From a phage, in sequence record OZ346187.1: DNA of 64,000 nt; one strand, given 5' to 3'. Under the pieces are notes generated by a model. It ran no database searches, was not told the origin of the DNA, and was given only the letters and a program-made list of their open reading frames with translations. Position numbers and translations under genes: made by a program. Positions within the stretch are counted from its first letter, which is position 1; the number at the start of each line of letters is the position of its first letter. Shown piece after piece: positions 56,244 to 64,000 of this stretch.

Positions 56244-57175
56244 TGCATATAGTCCTCGTTGTGGAAATAGTAGTCCAGTATCTCACGACGCTCCTGCTCT
56301 AATAAGCAATTCCACACATCTTCTGTATAGTTGCTACGAATAAATTTTACCATACCGTAAAACTCTTCGTCAACACGTTTAAAGATATCATCATCCCAAA
56401 TCTTCCAAGCTTTACCCCTCATTACTGCCTTCTGTGCCAGATAGTATGGAGACTTGATCTTCAGCTGCAGATCATAAGGGTAGTAAGGCTTACGAATCAT
56501 ATACCCTTCACCTCTTGTTTCTGCAGCTAATTCTTTTGCATAGCTGAACGGAATTTCACGCACAGTGTTAGGACGTTTTGCACCAAGGTATTTGGCAATC
56601 CCATCTAAAGCTGCTTCTGGTAGCATTATTCCAGAATCATTATATCTGCAACCTATCAAATATGCGCCATGGTCTTCTTGAACAATATGCGGATCTGAAG
56701 GGTGACAAATTTCAAACATGAATGTCATGTTTTCATTGCCCATAACCTTCTTGATAAGATCTAAATTACCACATTGCTCTTGGATGGTTTCCTTTGCAAG
56801 GTTACAATATGGAGAATCAAGAGACCCGGTTGTTGAGAACAATAGGTCACCTTTATGAGATGATACCACACCAAGGAATCCGTTCTTTTTCTCTACCGCA
56901 GTCACAAGCTTATTGTCAGGCAGGTTGGTGGAGTTTTCTCCCAAGTTAAACACTTTTGTGAAGGGCCATGCCACAACATTTCCTTCATTACCTACAACAA
57001 TGCCTCGGCACTCCAGTAAACGAGGGGACAAATGCCATAAATTGTTGTAAAATACTTTTCTAGCATATTTATAGATCTTTAACCCGAGATCTGGGTAATA
57101 CCTACTGGTTGCAAGACCTTTGTCAACTAGGTCGTCTGCATTAAAATACTTCATTATATGTTCCTCATTTGTCAT
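56240..57175 (-). CDS. putative RNA ligase (Rnl1-like nucleotidyltransferase)
   Basis: Motif I-like EKKNG, motif IV-like EGYMIR, motif V-like LKIKSP; likely start is the second Met (57154) after a GAGGAA RBS. Confidence 0.45.
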   Translation of the reverse strand: MTNEEHIMKYFNADDLVDKGLATSRYYPDLGLKIYKYARKVFYNNLWHLSPRLLECRGIVVGNEGNVVAWPFTKVFNLGENSTNLPDNKLVTAVEKKNGFLGVVSSHKGDLLFSTTGSLDSPYCNLAKETIQEQCGNLDLIKKVMGNENMTFMFEICHPSDPHIVQEDHGAYLIGCRYNDSGIMLPEAALDGIAKYLGAKRPNTVREIPFSYAKELAAETRGEGYMIRKPYYPYDLQLKIKSPYYLAQKAVMRGKAWKIWDDDIFKRVDEEFYGMVKFIRSNYTEDVWNCLLEQERREILDYYFHNEDYMQ

Positions 57176-57693: not shown

Positions 57694-58248
57694 ATGAAAT
57701 ACTTTGTAACAAGCGACACACACTTTCTCCACCAGCGGGTCATGGAGTTTGATTCATGTCAAAAACACAGATCTCAGTATGATCACAATCTTGACAGTAT
57801 GAATGCGGGAATCATCACCAAGTGGAACTCTGTTGTGTCACCTGCAGACACTGTGTTCCACTTGGGAGATATTGCATGCACTAATGATAAGAATATCAAC
57901 AAATTGCTCCCAGATATTCTAAATATGTTGAACGGACATATTATTCTTGTTCGTGGCAACCATGACACAAGGACGACTGTCAAAATTATGAAAGAGTTCG
58001 GTCATGAGGTTGTAGATTATTACGAGCTTCGCCACAACAAGAATTTGATCTGTATGAGCCATTACCAGTTTGCAAAGTGGAACAGAAAGCCTCACGGATC
58101 AGTCCAACTGTTCGGTCATGCTCACGGAACCACACAACAGTTGTTTGGCAGGCAGCTTGATGTCGGTTGGGATGTGTGGGGGAGACTCTTACCATTAGAA
58201 GAGGCATACCGTATTGCAATGAGTTTTGATATTGACAGCAGGGAGTAA
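57694..58248 (+). CDS. calcineurin-like metallophosphoesterase
   Basis: SDTHF, GDI, GNHD metallophosphatase motifs; ATG at 57694 after GAGGAA; ORF track 57589-58248. Confidence 0.6.
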   Translation: MKYFVTSDTHFLHQRVMEFDSCQKHRSQYDHNLDSMNAGIITKWNSVVSPADTVFHLGDIACTNDKNINKLLPDILNMLNGHIILVRGNHDTRTTVKIMKEFGHEVVDYYELRHNKNLICMSHYQFAKWNRKPHGSVQLFGHAHGTTQQLFGRQLDVGWDVWGRLLPLEEAYRIAMSFDIDSRE

Positions 58249-58295
58249 TCCCTGCTATTTTAAAGAAAATTGCCACACAAGGAGAATCAGGAGAT

Positions 58296-58646
58296 ATGAA
58301 AGATGGGGATAAGCTGCTATATCTTAAAGTCCCCCTTGAAATACTATCTATGTCAAAAGTTTTGAATGACACAACTGGGGAGGTTGTTGTTCTTGACTTG
58401 TATGACAAGATCGTATACTGCTACCTGCACAACTGGTATAAGCTTGGAGGAAATTCACGCTTCACACCAAGCACAAGGAAAATTGCAGCAGATGTTGGGA
58501 TAAAGAAAACAAAAGCAGCAGCGTGCGTTAAAACTTTAGAATGTGCAGGAGTGGTTGAAACATCCACACAAGGGAGAGGTAAAAGATGCACATTTTCCAA
58601 AGTTTTGCCACCAGAAGAAGTTATTCGGATGTCAACAACTGGTTAG
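58296..58646 (+). CDS. hypothetical protein, possibly DNA-binding
   Basis: 116-aa ORF directly upstream of the iteron-like repeats. Confidence 0.35.
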   Translation: MKDGDKLLYLKVPLEILSMSKVLNDTTGEVVVLDLYDKIVYCYLHNWYKLGGNSRFTPSTRKIAADVGIKKTKAAACVKTLECAGVVETSTQGRGKRCTFSKVLPPEEVIRMSTTG

Positions 58647-58717
58647 ACCAGTAAAAACTTAAATATCTGTACTATAAGGATTCGTATGTTTTATGTTCGC
58701 CATGGAACGGATACTAT

Positions 58718-58783
58718 TAACTGTCCGTGATACGGACACATCTGCCCGTAATACGGACACTAACTGTCCGTGATACGGACACA
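58718..58783. repeat. three tandem ~21-bp iteron-like repeats, each an inverted repeat
   Basis: TAACTGTCCGTGATACGGACACA at 58718 and 58761 (identical) and TCTGCCCGTAATACGGACAC between; each is GTCCGT-N3-ACGGAC; followed by an AT-rich segment with GGTACTAAGTAC / CTAAGTACC palindromes (58790-58920). Confidence 0.8.
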
Positions 58784-58920
58784 TAAAGAATATAACTAAA
58801 ATAACTAAATAATAAAAAATAAAAGATCTAGTACTTATGGTACTAAGTACATATACTTAACTTATGTAGAATATACTAGATCCTAAGTACCATGTTTTAA
58901 ATTTATTACTTACTATGGGC

Positions 58921-59170
58921 AGTGTCGGCCCTTCATTGGCACTCGCCTACGAGGGGCGAGATGCCGGGCCTCCTTGGTGCACACAATAACAGAAGTTCAT
59001 ACATGCAGGTCTGTTAACATGTGTGGGAGCGAAGCGATAGCGCAGGCCAAAGGCCGAGCACTGATGTGGGCCACCGACGAAAGCTTGCCAGCGCCGTAAG
59101 GAGTCGGTTGAGAGTCTCCCGCACGAGCTTGGATGAAGTTTATGTGTGGAAACTGACAAGAAGGCCCCTA
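58921..59170 (+). ncRNA. candidate structured non-coding RNA (unclassified)
   Basis: ~250 bp GC-rich block in AT-rich surroundings; several hairpins (CTCGCC-TACGAGG-GGCGAG, GGCC-AAA-GGCC); only a weak overlapping minus-strand ORF. Confidence 0.25.
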
Positions 59171-59285
59171 AATCGCTCCACAGCTATATAAACTATACCA
59201 GGTAATGCAATCGCACCAGTTTGATAGAAAAGCTCGTTACAAAGCGATACAGTGAGTTTTTCTATAACTTGAAGAGGAGGCAGCT

Positions 59286-59864
59286 ATGGGTTCACGCAAA
59301 GATGACCGTGAAAAGATTGCAAAACGTTATCAGAATGAAGAACAGATGGAGAAAACTTTCAAGTGGAAGCCAGGTTTCCAGCGTAATCATTCTAACGCTC
59401 GTGATCGTAAGCATCCGGATAAGTGGTTAACACCGCCAAATGATGGCATGCAGGTTGGGGATGAGAAGGAGCTGTCACCTGGAAAAGATGGCAACTACAT
59501 TCGCACTAAGGAAGCAGGTCCAAAGGATGACAGCTATCTTGTAGATAAGGTTCTTGACGGTGTTGATGTAGGTGTTGACACTGTACGAAACCTTTTTCTT
59601 GGTTGGTATCGCACAGGGTTTTTCGACATCAAGGCTATTCGTCGTGTTTGTGATATTAAAAAGTCTGCCTACGATGATGATTCCCTACATCGCACTCTGA
59701 GACAATACTCAGAGAGGTACGGTCATCCAGTTATCACTCTTGACGATATTAACGAAGTTATGTATCATGTAGAGGTTGTTGCAGGTAGGTTCGGTGATGC
59801 ATATCTCGGTATTCTTTCTGCAAAGGATGAGGTAATGTTAAATAAGATTTACTATGAACGCTGA
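59286..59864 (+). CDS. hypothetical protein
   Basis: 192-aa ORF after AGGAGG RBS. Confidence 0.5.
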   Translation: MGSRKDDREKIAKRYQNEEQMEKTFKWKPGFQRNHSNARDRKHPDKWLTPPNDGMQVGDEKELSPGKDGNYIRTKEAGPKDDSYLVDKVLDGVDVGVDTVRNLFLGWYRTGFFDIKAIRRVCDIKKSAYDDDSLHRTLRQYSERYGHPVITLDDINEVMYHVEVVAGRFGDAYLGILSAKDEVMLNKIYYER

Positions 59865-61103: not shown

Positions 61104-61162
61104 TGTAAACATGGTCTCCCACCTTTTCTGGCGGCTAAGGTGTAAAAGAAAGCCACCCAGTG

Positions 61163-61237
61163 CCCTGTTAGCTTAGTGGATAAAGCAGCGGCCTTCTAAG
61201 CCGTTGACACTGGTTCGAGTCCAGTACGGGGTGCCAA
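61163..61237 (+). tRNA. tRNA-Arg (anticodon TCT)
   Basis: Hand-folded cloverleaf: acceptor GCCCTGT/ACGGGGT (with G.U pairs), anticodon loop CTTCTAA, T-loop GGTTCGAGTCC, CCA encoded. Confidence 0.65.
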
Positions 61238-61241
61238 ATTG

Positions 61242-61327
61242 GGGAGTTATCCCGTAGAGGTAGCGGTGTAGACTGTAAATCTATTGTCATTGCGACTCGG
61301 GTGGTTCGACTCCACCACTCCCCACCA
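61242..61327 (+). tRNA. tRNA-Tyr (anticodon GTA), long variable arm
   Basis: Acceptor GGGGAGT/ACTCCCC, anticodon loop CTGTAAA, T-arm GGTGG-TTCGACT-CCACC, CCA encoded. Confidence 0.65.
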
Positions 61328-61441
61328 AATTTATATTTTTAGATGCATAAATAATACAGATAATGGCATTGATATTTATCGTCGTTTATACTAGTCACTA
61401 ACTGCTCGAAAATCAGTGTCATTATCAGTATAATTTATAAA

Positions 61442-61532
61442 GGAGGGTAGGGAGCAATGGTGCTCAAGCGGTCTTGAAAACCGTCCCGTTGAGGATGACT
61501 CGATGATGGTTCGATTCCATTACTCTCCGCCA
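61442..61532 (+). tRNA. tRNA-Ser (anticodon TGA), long variable arm
   Basis: Acceptor GGAGGGT/ACTCTCC, D-stem GAGC/GCTC, anticodon loop CTTGAAA, T-loop GGTTCGATTCC, CCA encoded. Confidence 0.6.
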
Positions 61533-61630
61533 CATTGTTGACCTTGTAATTAAGCGAAAGCCGGAAGCAGAACCGGATTATCAAATGTTACAGTCGTCAT
61601 CGCCGACTAGCAACATGGTCAACATACTGA

Positions 61631-61729
61631 GCTAGGTAAGCCCTTTGGCAAGGGCGAGGATTTTTAATCCTGAAAATAGACGAGGTAGTCGTTGAATACA
61701 TAGGTGGTTCGATTCCATCACCTAGCACC
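61631..61729 (+). tRNA. atypical tRNA-like gene (~99 nt), anticodon ambiguous (most consistent with TTT)
   Basis: Perfect 7-bp acceptor GCTAGGT/ACCTAGC, D-arm GCCC-TTTGGCAA-GGGC, T-arm GGTGG-TTCGATT-CCATC; anticodon stem imperfect with loop TTTTTAA; ~29-nt extra region before the T-arm; 3' end ACC then T (CCA not fully encoded). Confidence 0.35.
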
Positions 61730-61734
61730 TTTTT

Positions 61735-61810
61735 GCTGATGTAGCACAATCGGTAGTGCAATTGATTTGTAATCAATAGGTTGTAGGTTCAAGTCCTGCC
61801 ATCAGCACCA
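61735..61810 (+). tRNA. tRNA-Thr (anticodon TGT)
   Basis: Acceptor GCTGATG/CATCAGC, D-arm GCAC-AATCGGTA-GTGC, anticodon stem ATTGA/TCAAT with loop TTTGTAA, CCA encoded. Confidence 0.7.
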
Positions 61811-61811
61811 A

Positions 61812-61886
61812 GGCCCTGTAGCTGGAAGGTTCAAGCAAGCGACTCATAATCGCCAGACGGTGGTTCAATTCCACCCAGGGCCACCA
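61812..61886 (+). tRNA. tRNA-Met (anticodon CAT; initiator, elongator or Ile-lysidine type not resolved)
   Basis: Acceptor GGCCCTG/CAGGGCC, anticodon loop CTCATAA, T-arm GGTGG-TTCAATT-CCACC, CCA encoded. Confidence 0.65.
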
Positions 61887-61897
61887 AATAGTAAATA

Positions 61898-61974
61898 CTC
61901 CGCGTAGCTCAGCTTGGTAGAGCGCCTGATTTGGGATCAGGAGGTCGAGTGTTCGAATCACTCCGTGGAGACCA
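61898..61974 (+). tRNA. tRNA-Pro (anticodon TGG)
   Basis: Acceptor CTCCGCG/CGTGGAG, D-arm GCTC-AGCTTGGTA-GAGC, anticodon stem CCTGA/TCAGG with loop TTTGGGA, T-arm GAGTG-TTCGAAT-CACTC, CCA encoded. Confidence 0.7.
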
Positions 61975-62794: not shown

Positions 62795-63078
62795 GAGTTG
62801 CTACACTGTTTATTGTGTGCTTGTTATTATGTGGGTGTGCAACCAGCGTTGAGAGAGAATACAAGATTGACCCTCCTGATGTAGGAAGGTTGATTGTTAA
62901 ACCCCCGGAAGGTGCCATGAAACCACCTGCTAAAGCTATGCCTTTGAAGAAAGGTGCGCCAGATGCAGTGAATTCTGGCATTATGAGGGATAATAATCTG
63001 TCTTGTAGCAATGATAGAGCTAAATTGATCATTTTGCAAGACTATATTAGAACACTTTTTCCAAAGGAGAGAGGTTAA
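62791..63078 (+). CDS. outer-membrane spanin (o-spanin, Rz1-like lipoprotein)
   Basis: Signal peptide with lipobox LLCGC, proline-rich mature region; start overlaps the i-spanin stop. Confidence 0.6.
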   Translation: MRVATLFIVCLLLCGCATSVEREYKIDPPDVGRLIVKPPEGAMKPPAKAMPLKKGAPDAVNSGIMRDNNLSCSNDRAKLIILQDYIRTLFPKERG

Positions 63079-63503
63079 TGTCTAAGATTTACGGACCGTG
63101 TTCTGAAAAGCAGAAGATGATCCTAGAAAACGATGCAGATATTTTGGTAATCGGCGGTGCCGCAGGGTCTGGCAAGTCGTTCCTCTTGCAATTGATGCCA
63201 CTTAAAATTATTGATGACCCCCACAGCTCTGTGGTTATGTTCCGAAGAACAACCCCACAGTTGGAAGGTGAGGGTGGATTATGGCCTAAAGCAGTAGCTA
63301 TTTATAGTGATCTGCCTGAAAACATTAAGCCAAAGTTTAGAGAGAAGGATCATAAGTTCATTTTTCCACGGTTTGATCCGAACACTGGCAAGTGGGATAG
63401 AAGCAAAAAGGGAGCTGTTGTAAAATACTGCCACATGGAGTATGTACAAGATAAGCTTAACCATCAGGGGCTTGAGTACACCATGGTTTGCTTCGATGAG
63501 GGT
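63078..63503 (+). CDS. terL: terminase large subunit, exon 1 (ATPase N-terminus)
   Basis: Walker A GGAAGSGKS, Walker B MVCFDEG; ORF stop 63504-63506 falls immediately after the proposed 5' splice site (exon ends in U). Confidence 0.5.
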
Positions 63504-64000
63504 TAATTTGTAGCTCTCGTAAAACCTCCCTAATTGCGGGGAAATCTTTATTATTGACACCACCAACCTGTCATGGTAACATGACAGAGGCTTCGAAGAG
63601 AGATCGAAGGTATGGTAACAGTGTGTTAATTTAGATAATCCGCAGCGAAGCATCCGAGAGGATGAACGTTCAACGACTAGTCGAAAGACGTAGAATCAAG
63701 CGATTCGAAACGGGAGGGTGAATGTGTAATACTAAGAAATGTATGGATTGCCAAAGAGTTCTACCTATTGATGATTTCTTTTTATCATCTAAGAGCAAGG
63801 ATGGATACTCAGGTACATGCAAGGAATGCTATATGTACTACAGGAAGGGTGGATCTCGTAAAAACAAAAATATGGTTAAGAGAGATGATGCAGCATTGTT
63901 TATTCAAGACTTGCTGAAGAAAGGTGAACTTTTTGAATGCAAATCTTGTCATGAAAGTATGCTCGCTGATAGTTTTTACACAAAACGTGACTATGGTAAA
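63504..64000 (+). mobile_element. group I intron in terL (3' end beyond window)
   Basis: P element AATTGCGGGGAAA (63531), Q element AATCCGCAGC (63640), R element GTTCAACGACTAG (63682), followed by an RBS and ORF. Confidence 0.6.
63722..64000 (+). CDS. intron-encoded zinc-finger protein, probable homing endonuclease (3' partial)
   Basis: ATG after GGGAGGGTGA RBS inside the intron; CxxC ... CxxC and CKSCH cysteine pairs; continues past window end. Confidence 0.4.
   Translation, partial: MCNTKKCMDCQRVLPIDDFFLSSKSKDGYSGTCKECYMYYRKGGSRKNKNMVKRDDAALFIQDLLKKGELFECKSCHESMLADSFYTKRDYGK

Follow-up and report, generated by a model that had tools for sequence, protein, structure and literature searches.

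Several iteron origins of the same build as the locus described here are known, among them lambda ori, the origins of iteron plasmids and the origin of the Vibrio cholerae satellite PLE. Lambda ori contains several ~18-bp dyad sites, each of the O-dimer type, which are roughly helically phased and are bordered on one side by an A+T-rich, strand-asymmetric region. The DNA-binding part of lambda O is an N-terminal winged-helix domain, and the C-terminal domain of the protein recruits P-DnaB. To our knowledge, a C-terminal domain that recruits helicase or primase is present in every characterised RepA_N and lambda-O initiator. In the staphylococcal multiresistance plasmids (pSK41/pTZ2162; structures 4PQL, 4PT7 and 5KBJ), RepA dimers bind iterons and the origin lies inside repA. 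RepA of PLE has neither helicase nor primase activity, binds semi-palindromic direct repeats in non-coding DNA and needs a virulent phage to provide the replisome. Binding of these semi-palindromic iterons at the PLE origin was established by EMSA and by deletion and genetics, and RepA drives replication only when the virulent phage ICP1 supplies its machinery (Barth et al., NAR 2020, PMC7145576). The searchable literature contained nothing relevant on an rV5-type origin, on rV5-type iterons or on satellites of Vequintavirus.

Here we analysed sequence record OZ346187.1, a 64,000-nt stretch (the window) that belongs to an rV5-like E. coli myovirus of the genus Vequintavirus. Around the locus, the window shares 99.8% identity with Escherichia phage nomine and 90–99% with 119 Vequintavirus (rV5-like) records; window position ~58.8 kb corresponds to ~65.2 kb in rV5. 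An array of palindromic repeats, an AT-rich segment and a GC-rich structured element occupy a 639-bp intergenic region (58647–59285) between the gene of a 116-aa winged-helix protein and a 192-aa gene to which no function was assigned (Table 1). We propose, with a probability of about 60%, that the array, the AT-rich DNA and the 116-aa protein constitute a candidate iteron-type origin of rV5-like phages with a RepA_N-like initiator. Iteron origins with RepA_N-like or O-like initiators are a known kind, and no earlier assignment of one to rV5-like phages was found in the searchable literature. Its unusual points are an initiator that would consist of the N-terminal domain only, the exchange of protein and repeats as a cassette, and a structured element shared with plasmids that encode capsid and tail proteins.

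Table 1. Features at and around the intergenic region, in coordinates of the 64,000-nt window
Feature	Position	Strand	Remarks
Sigma-70-like promoter	58232-58261	+	TTGACA-18-TATTTT with TG, before the winged-helix gene; 10/12 in consensus scan; P76 in rV5 RefSeq
Gene of 116-aa winged-helix protein	58296-58646	+	left flank; annotated gene in relatives
Hypervariable patch	58696-58720	.	25 bp, left of array; 17/25 sites vary, pi 0.285 in 18 genomes
Iteron 1, TGTCCGTGATACGGACA	58722-58738	.	perfect 7+3+7 palindrome; kept in relatives
Iteron 2, TGCCCGTAATACGGACA	58743-58759	.	one mismatch in left arm (GCCCGT)
Iteron 3, TGTCCGTGATACGGACA	58765-58781	.	same palindrome as iteron 1
A+T-rich segment	58785-58915	.	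candidate DNA-unwinding element; 131 bp, 19.8% GC
oriC 13-mer match, GATCTTTTATTTT	58816-58828	-	within A+T-rich segment; matches E. coli consensus GATCTnTTnTTTT
GC-rich conserved structured element	58916-59185	+	~270 nt; adjoins A+T-rich segment on its right
Hairpin H1	58927-58931/58966-58970 and 58938-58947/58955-58965	+	phage–plasmid compensatory changes
Outer helix of GC-rich element	59021-59029/59116-59124	+	
Helix A	59073-59078/59103-59108	+	closes invariant 24-nt loop 59079-59102

A winged-helix protein related to initiator DNA-binding domains

The 116-aa protein matches PHROG 12838 (E 5e-80) and, more weakly, PHROGs 8102, 428 and 270, all named 'replication initiation protein', although these names derive from annotation, not from experiments. 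Many GenBank records call the gene product a 'putative transcriptional regulator', and rV5 RefSeq calls it a 'replication initiation protein' (gp075). Two Pfam families fall just below their cut-offs, DUF6945 (27.4 bits, cut-off 28) and HTH_36 (24.5 bits, cut-off 25), and weak helix-turn-helix matches of the CodY, LexA, TrmB and MarR types were also found. There is no match to Pfam RepA_N (PF06970) at E values up to 1.

Among sequences of the PDB, the best phmmer match is 4RO3 (E 3e-6), which is the N-terminal domain of PLE RepA (PMC7145576). The AlphaFold (AF2) model of the protein (pLDDT 79) consists of a beta-hairpin, a winged helix and a C-terminal helix. In a Foldseek search with this model, 4RO3 again ranks first (TM 0.66), followed by the staphylococcal RepA N-terminal domain and Rep–DNA complexes 4PQL, 5KBJ and 4PT7 (E 5.5e-4 to 1.5e-3; TM 0.55 over 114 columns), with repressors of the MarR, LexA and CodY types ranked below the initiator domains. 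Both searches place the protein with the RepA_N/DnaD-NTD winged-helix fold. The likeness to staphylococcal RepA extends over the whole domain, whereas similarity at the sequence level is not significant (phmmer E ~0.8).

The protein ends with this N-terminal domain and has no C-terminal recruitment domain; extensions are present in two homologues, P0009 (194 aa) and P0011 (217 aa). It differs in this respect from PLE RepA, from staphylococcal RepA and from lambda O, all of which have a C-terminal domain. Since there is no C-terminal domain and no Pfam RepA_N match, we call the protein RepA_N-like, N-terminal domain only, and make no claim of membership in RepA_N. The iteron sequences are unrelated to those of PLE, which is a satellite, whereas the locus described here belongs to the phage itself. 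Lambda ori shares with this locus the multiple phased dyad sites, the A+T-rich side and a winged-helix DNA-binding domain, but it lies inside the O gene, whereas the sites here follow the gene. The 116-aa protein has no match to Pfam Phage_rep_O, and weak matches to PHROGs named 'replication initiation O-like' were obtained only for a homologue in Klebsiella phage KpS8 and for a helix-turn-helix protein of one plasmid, both described below. With an initiator reduced to its N-terminal domain one would have to ask what brings in the replisome, a question that PLE RepA also poses.

With tblastn against GenBank phages, the 116-aa protein was found only in 119 Vequintavirus records, all at least 89.7% identical, and they therefore carry no covariation signal. 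A word-indexed search gave 5 close relatives and an exhaustive HMMER search gave 8, several of which are repeat proteins. A search of IMG/VR for related loci found nothing.

A phased palindromic array beside the least stable DNA of the window

A sequence-only reading of this DNA had described three tandem ~21-bp repeats followed by AT-rich palindromic DNA, and both are real. A repeat finder reports three 24-nt units (58718–58741, 58739–58762 and 58761–58784) at spacings of 21 and 22 bp, with units 1 and 3 identical over 24 nt. Each unit contains a 17-bp palindrome, TGTCCGT-N3-ACGGACA, and the array of palindromes spans 58722–58781. The inverted repeat GTCCGT-N3-ACGGAC, which that reading had placed in every unit, is exact in units 1 and 3, whereas unit 2 departs from it by one mismatch. 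The spacing of 21–22 bp corresponds to two helical turns.

The palindrome is specific to this place. The pattern TGTCCG-N5-CGGACA with up to two mismatches has 6 matches in the window against 1.2 expected, a number reached in none of 100 shuffles, and the three units of the array are its only matches with 0–1 mismatch. It is restricted to the array also in a pseudo-genome of ~127 kb, made up of the window and the remainder of phage nomine, as would be expected of a single dedicated site rather than of a regulon. A role of the palindromes as intrinsic terminators was considered and rejected, as no unit is followed by a T-run and a terminator scan was empty there.

Directly to the right of the array is the DNA with the lowest GC content and, by nearest-neighbour energy, the least stability in the whole 64-kb window, at lengths of 50, 100 and 130 bp alike; the window averages about 43% GC. 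The left end of this segment is A-rich on the + strand. Two nested inverted repeats were found in it, ATGGTACTAAG/CTAAGTACCAT (58837–58847/58883–58893) and GATCTAGTA/TACTAGATC (58825–58833/58874–58882), as well as GATC sites at 58825 and 58879.

The segment also resembles the DNA-unwinding element of E. coli oriC in having one exact match to the 13-mer consensus together with GATC in AT-rich DNA, but the three 13-mers of oriC contrast with the single copy here. The window contains just this one match (0.09 expected; 9 of 100 shuffles give one or more), which is present in all 18 rV5-like loci compared; as a clue to an origin it is weak, the test having been made post hoc. Neither DnaA boxes, strict or relaxed, nor an IHF consensus were found in 58600–59300. 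DnaA and IHF sites occur in many iteron plasmids and are not needed by phage origins that use the phage replisome.

Constraint on the array within rV5-like phages

For comparison, the intergenic region was taken from 18 rV5-like genomes. The array varies among them from 2 to 6 units, at 21–22 bp spacing, and its commonest form has four: TGTCCGTGATACGGACA, TGTCCGTCACGCGGACA, TGCCCGTAATACGGACA and TGTCCGTGATACGGACA. The outer half-sites, TGyCCG and CGGACA, are nearly invariant (single changes in 4 units), and the central 5 nt differ between units. The iterons have a nucleotide diversity (pi) of 0.015 and the AT-rich DNA one of 0.018, compared with 0.05 for the GC-rich DNA on the right. From these values we conclude that the array and the AT-rich DNA are strongly constrained as DNA while copy number is free, and the iterons, judged by the aligned sequences, are under strong purifying selection. 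Constrained sites whose copy number changes freely are the usual behaviour of iterons.

To the left, between a conserved segment that follows the gene and the first iteron, is a hypervariable patch whose flanks have pi values of 0.015–0.05. The patch includes ACGGATAC, which resembles the right half-site, and it may be a further iteron in decay or mark a recombination junction.

Exchange of protein and repeats as a unit

A divergent rV5-like contig of 137 kb (L122), met during the search with the GC-rich element, has conserved flanks at the same position: the phosphoesterase gene on the left and, at 83% identity, the GC-rich element and the 192-aa gene on the right. Between these flanks it has a different protein, of 143 aa, and different repeats. 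Homology between the 143-aa and the 116-aa protein is distant (28% identity over 83 aa; pairwise E 7e-7), and the 143-aa protein matches PHROG 8102, one of the initiator families that the 116-aa protein matches. Directly after its gene are about five palindromes, TCTGATrCA-N4-TGyATCAGA, 21–33 bp apart, with an A-rich run beyond. The presence of a different protein with different palindromes at one position indicates that protein and sites were exchanged as a unit.

This exchange indirectly supports the prediction that the repeats that follow the gene are recognised by its 116-aa product, and it is the best evidence for this short of experiments. The sequence-only reading had proposed the upstream open reading frame as the source of a candidate binding protein. 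The frame is indeed a gene, and the proposal gains from the winged-helix fold, from the iteron-binding PLE RepA domain being the closest solved relative, and from the joint replacement in L122. It suggests that even in phages that are large and virulent, the initiator evolves together with its iterons as one specificity module that can be exchanged.

In Klebsiella phage KpS8 (Mydovirus; L005 1989–2264), a 105-aa homologous 'replication initiation protein' is encoded at a junction of divergent transcription. Its gene adjoins AT-rich intergenic DNA with the palindrome GTGCTCA...TGAGCAC, placed directly upstream of the start codon, and two AGATCT sites. The KpS8 locus may be an equivalent module in another genus.

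A structured element in common with plasmids that encode capsid and tail proteins

The GC-rich element that follows the AT-rich segment, which went unnoticed in the sequence-only reading, folds better on its + strand than shuffled sequences do (z = -2.6), and 81–87% of its nucleotides match DNA that is left unannotated in small circular E. coli plasmids. Between phage and plasmid all 15 pairs of hairpin H1 are kept, with two double (compensatory) changes, and in helix A three of the six pairs are compensatory (ACCGAC/GTCGGT versus GCTGCC/GGCAGC). The loop that helix A closes, GAAAGCTTGCCAGCGCCGnAAGGA, is identical in all copies save at its one n position (T or G). In some plasmids H1 has been swapped for an unrelated hairpin. 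G.U pairs occur on the + strand only and, together with the compensatory changes, point to a single-stranded structure (RNA or DNA) and not to a duplex recognition site. With the rV5-like sequences alone, RNAalifold found only one convincing compensatory pair, because divergence among them is too low. Rfam has no family for the element of the phage, of the plasmids or of L122.

A 56-aa open reading frame over the element (gp074 in the rV5 annotation) was rejected as coding. Its substitutions have no 3-base periodicity, and the phage–plasmid differences are compensatory for the helices and would be non-conservative for a peptide. Copies of the element were located in L023 (1002–1460), in L122 (1960–1700, - strand) and in the metagenome contigs L125 and L127. 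A scan of genome contigs with the 18-mer GAAAGCTTGCCAGCGCCG gave 95 matches in unrelated genomes, none of which matched the phage or plasmid element by blastn; the two that were inspected, in Kosakonia (L071) and in a viral contig (L121), were chance matches.

The plasmids form a family of non-mobilizable E. coli 'plasmids' of 13–15 kb (L025, L123, L124 and L024), to which the metagenome contigs L125 (13,895 bp) and L127 (15,489 bp) also belong. Its genes include those of a major capsid protein and of homologues of rV5-like baseplate and tape-measure proteins. One of them, NZ_CP020521.1 (L025), is a circle of 13,689 bp that encodes major capsid, baseplate and tape-measure proteins. By tblastx its baseplate and tape-measure proteins and the product of one adjacent gene are 38–54% identical in amino acids to rV5-like structural proteins, and its capsid gene gave no tblastx match. 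We found no description of these plasmids in the searchable literature. They have long non-coding regions with diverse arrays of palindromic iterons, and the order of parts in plasmids and contigs is palindromic iterons, AT-rich DNA with GATC sites, and GC-rich element. In one plasmid, seven CCGGTAAATATTTCCGG-like units are spaced 23 bp apart, and at least three further iteron types occupy the same place in other plasmids and in the two metagenomic contigs. The phage palindromes are not among them, and the GC-rich element is the sole similarity between plasmids and phage at the nucleotide level. Each member of the family encodes a variable helix-turn-helix protein of 290–305 aa; the one that was scanned, the 303-aa protein of L023, has weak matches to PHROGs named O-like initiator.

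Plasmids must carry an origin. Iterons, AT-rich DNA and GC-rich element recur in this order in three kinds of replicon, and the simplest reading is that they form an origin module, of which the GC-rich element appears to be a part. Judging from their gene content, the plasmids may be satellites or mini-phages of rV5-like phages that are kept as plasmids, and a structured non-coding element common to both points to a possible helper–satellite relationship in E. coli. A more elaborate proposal, which we put forward tentatively and consider rather unlikely in its full form, is an origin of three parts: an exchangeable initiator–iteron cassette, an unwinding element, and a ~270-nt structured RNA or single-stranded DNA that is shared with the plasmids as a handle for the machinery. 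If it were true, the element with the invariant loop would be the handle by which phage and parasite alike engage the phage replication (or packaging or transcription) machinery.

Proposed mechanism and competing explanations

Phased direct repeats, adjacent DNA that melts easily and a candidate initiator gene next to the repeats, all found here, are hallmarks of an iteron (theta) origin. In the mechanism that we envisage, the 116-aa protein would bind each 17-bp palindrome as a dimer, and the dimers would lie on one face of the helix, given that the sites are two helical turns apart, to form a compact nucleoprotein complex. This complex would strain and then open the adjacent A+T-rich segment. 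The phage replisome could enter at the opened DNA with a gp4-like primase-helicase and a Pol A-type polymerase, possibly also with a phage SF1B helicase of the PIF1/RecD type, such as PLE requires from ICP1. The GC-rich element may serve as a priming or loading signal or as an origin-activating transcript. The sequence-only reading had called the layout that of a replication origin or strong operator, and this is supported by protein homology, joint replacement, phasing, uniqueness, purifying selection and the position beside the least stable DNA.

The origin reading accounts for all features of the locus. Against it stand the want of a C-terminal domain to recruit helicase or primase, and the fact that a 116-aa winged-helix dimer on palindromes is an equally good portrait of a repressor. 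Large virulent phages, moreover, can initiate replication via recombination or R-loops, without an initiator.

GC skew was set aside as evidence. The cumulative skew minimum of the window (~57 kb) is 1.5 kb from the site, but it coincides with the point of divergent transcription at 57175/57219, so it is not independent evidence of an origin and is confounded with gene orientation. The rV5 genome paper, the one that looked for an origin in these phages, failed to define it, and the skew switches of rV5 likewise coincide with switches of transcription direction.

The alternative that survives best, which we nevertheless regard as improbable, is that the array is an operator or regulatory array only, the 116-aa protein being a transcription factor on phased palindromes and replication starting elsewhere. 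In one variant the bound protein would block read-through from its own promoter (58232–58261); in another the AT-rich DNA would contain a phage-specific promoter, activated or repressed by the protein, for the GC-rich RNA and a long rightward operon of tRNAs, lysis genes, terminase and structural genes. The size of the protein, its single domain and its weak CodY-, LexA-, TrmB- and MarR-type matches suit such a factor, as does the name given to it in many GenBank records. The array also heads a co-directional block of genes, the structured element downstream would need a promoter if it is an RNA, and the palindrome of KpS8 is at the usual place for autoregulation. However, a consensus scan of 58262–59740 found no sigma-70-like promoter on either strand that the palindromes might overlap, and the sites come after the gene that encodes the protein instead of lying at the promoter of that gene. 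In sequence and in fold, DNA-binding domains of initiators are closer to the protein than repressors are. Variation between 2 and 6 copies is common for iterons and unusual for operators, the extremely AT-rich and unstable DNA is left unexplained, and the same layout is found in plasmids, where an origin is required. Initiators often regulate transcription too, so this alternative overlaps with the origin reading, and both roles may apply; operator function is possible beside origin function and could coexist with it.

A packaging (pac) region, with the repeats, the GC-rich element or both as the pac site and the 116-aa protein as a recognition subunit resembling a small terminase, seems to us highly improbable. 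It would agree with the circular permutation of rV5 DNA, which implies headful packaging, and with the position of the region ~4 kb upstream of the large terminase gene, which is preceded by spanin-like genes and has no small terminase gene beside it. Satellites typically share the packaging signal of their helper, and here the GC-rich element is all that plasmids and phage share as nucleotide sequence. One GenBank record, A141 (MG065672.1), begins 23 bases ahead of the point where its alignment with the array starts, but record starts are scattered and set by convention. The 116-aa protein matches no terminase small-subunit family of Pfam or PHROGs and has the fold of RepA_N initiator domains, the plasmids have their own diverse iterons in place of the phage palindromes, and the compensatory pairs and one-strand G.U pairs of the GC-rich element fit a single-stranded structure, not a duplex site.

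That the repeats are a slippage product, a tandem duplication without any role, would suit their varying number between isolates and the bare 'repeat_region' label of the depositors, but can be dismissed almost entirely, as the half-sites are almost invariant in 18 genomes in which the bases next to them are saturated with changes, every unit is an internal palindrome, and L122 has an analogous array of other sequence with a different protein.

The iteron-origin reading bears on phages that are among the most often isolated from E. coli, and candidate coordinates make the question of where rV5-like phages begin replication testable. A candidate origin would also provide a cis element for engineering or rebooting rV5-like genomes.

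Further observations on the window and related records

Eighteen UNVERIFIED GenBank records of 'Campylobacter phage', A141 among them, are rV5-like E. coli phage genomes, and the start of the A141 record at the repeats is probably an assembly break. Positions 1–58200 of the window correspond to 64253–133132 of nomine and are ~10.7 kb shorter over the same span. This gap in length indicates that the window comes from a different isolate with sizeable indels, despite the 99.8% identity around the locus.

The large terminase gene (63078–64000 of the window) is interrupted: the open reading frame stops at 63506, and from ~63503 the sequence diverges from the uninterrupted gene of nomine. A group I intron match at 63494–63720 scores 41.3 bits in Rfam (E 5e-8), under the gathering score of 50. 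Introns in the terminase of rV5 have already been described (PMC3606486). A cluster of seven tRNAs at 61162–61974 includes a 99-nt tRNA (61631–61729) with the 4-base anticodon atcc according to ARAGORN, which is labelled tRNA-Lys or tRNA-OTHER in relatives.
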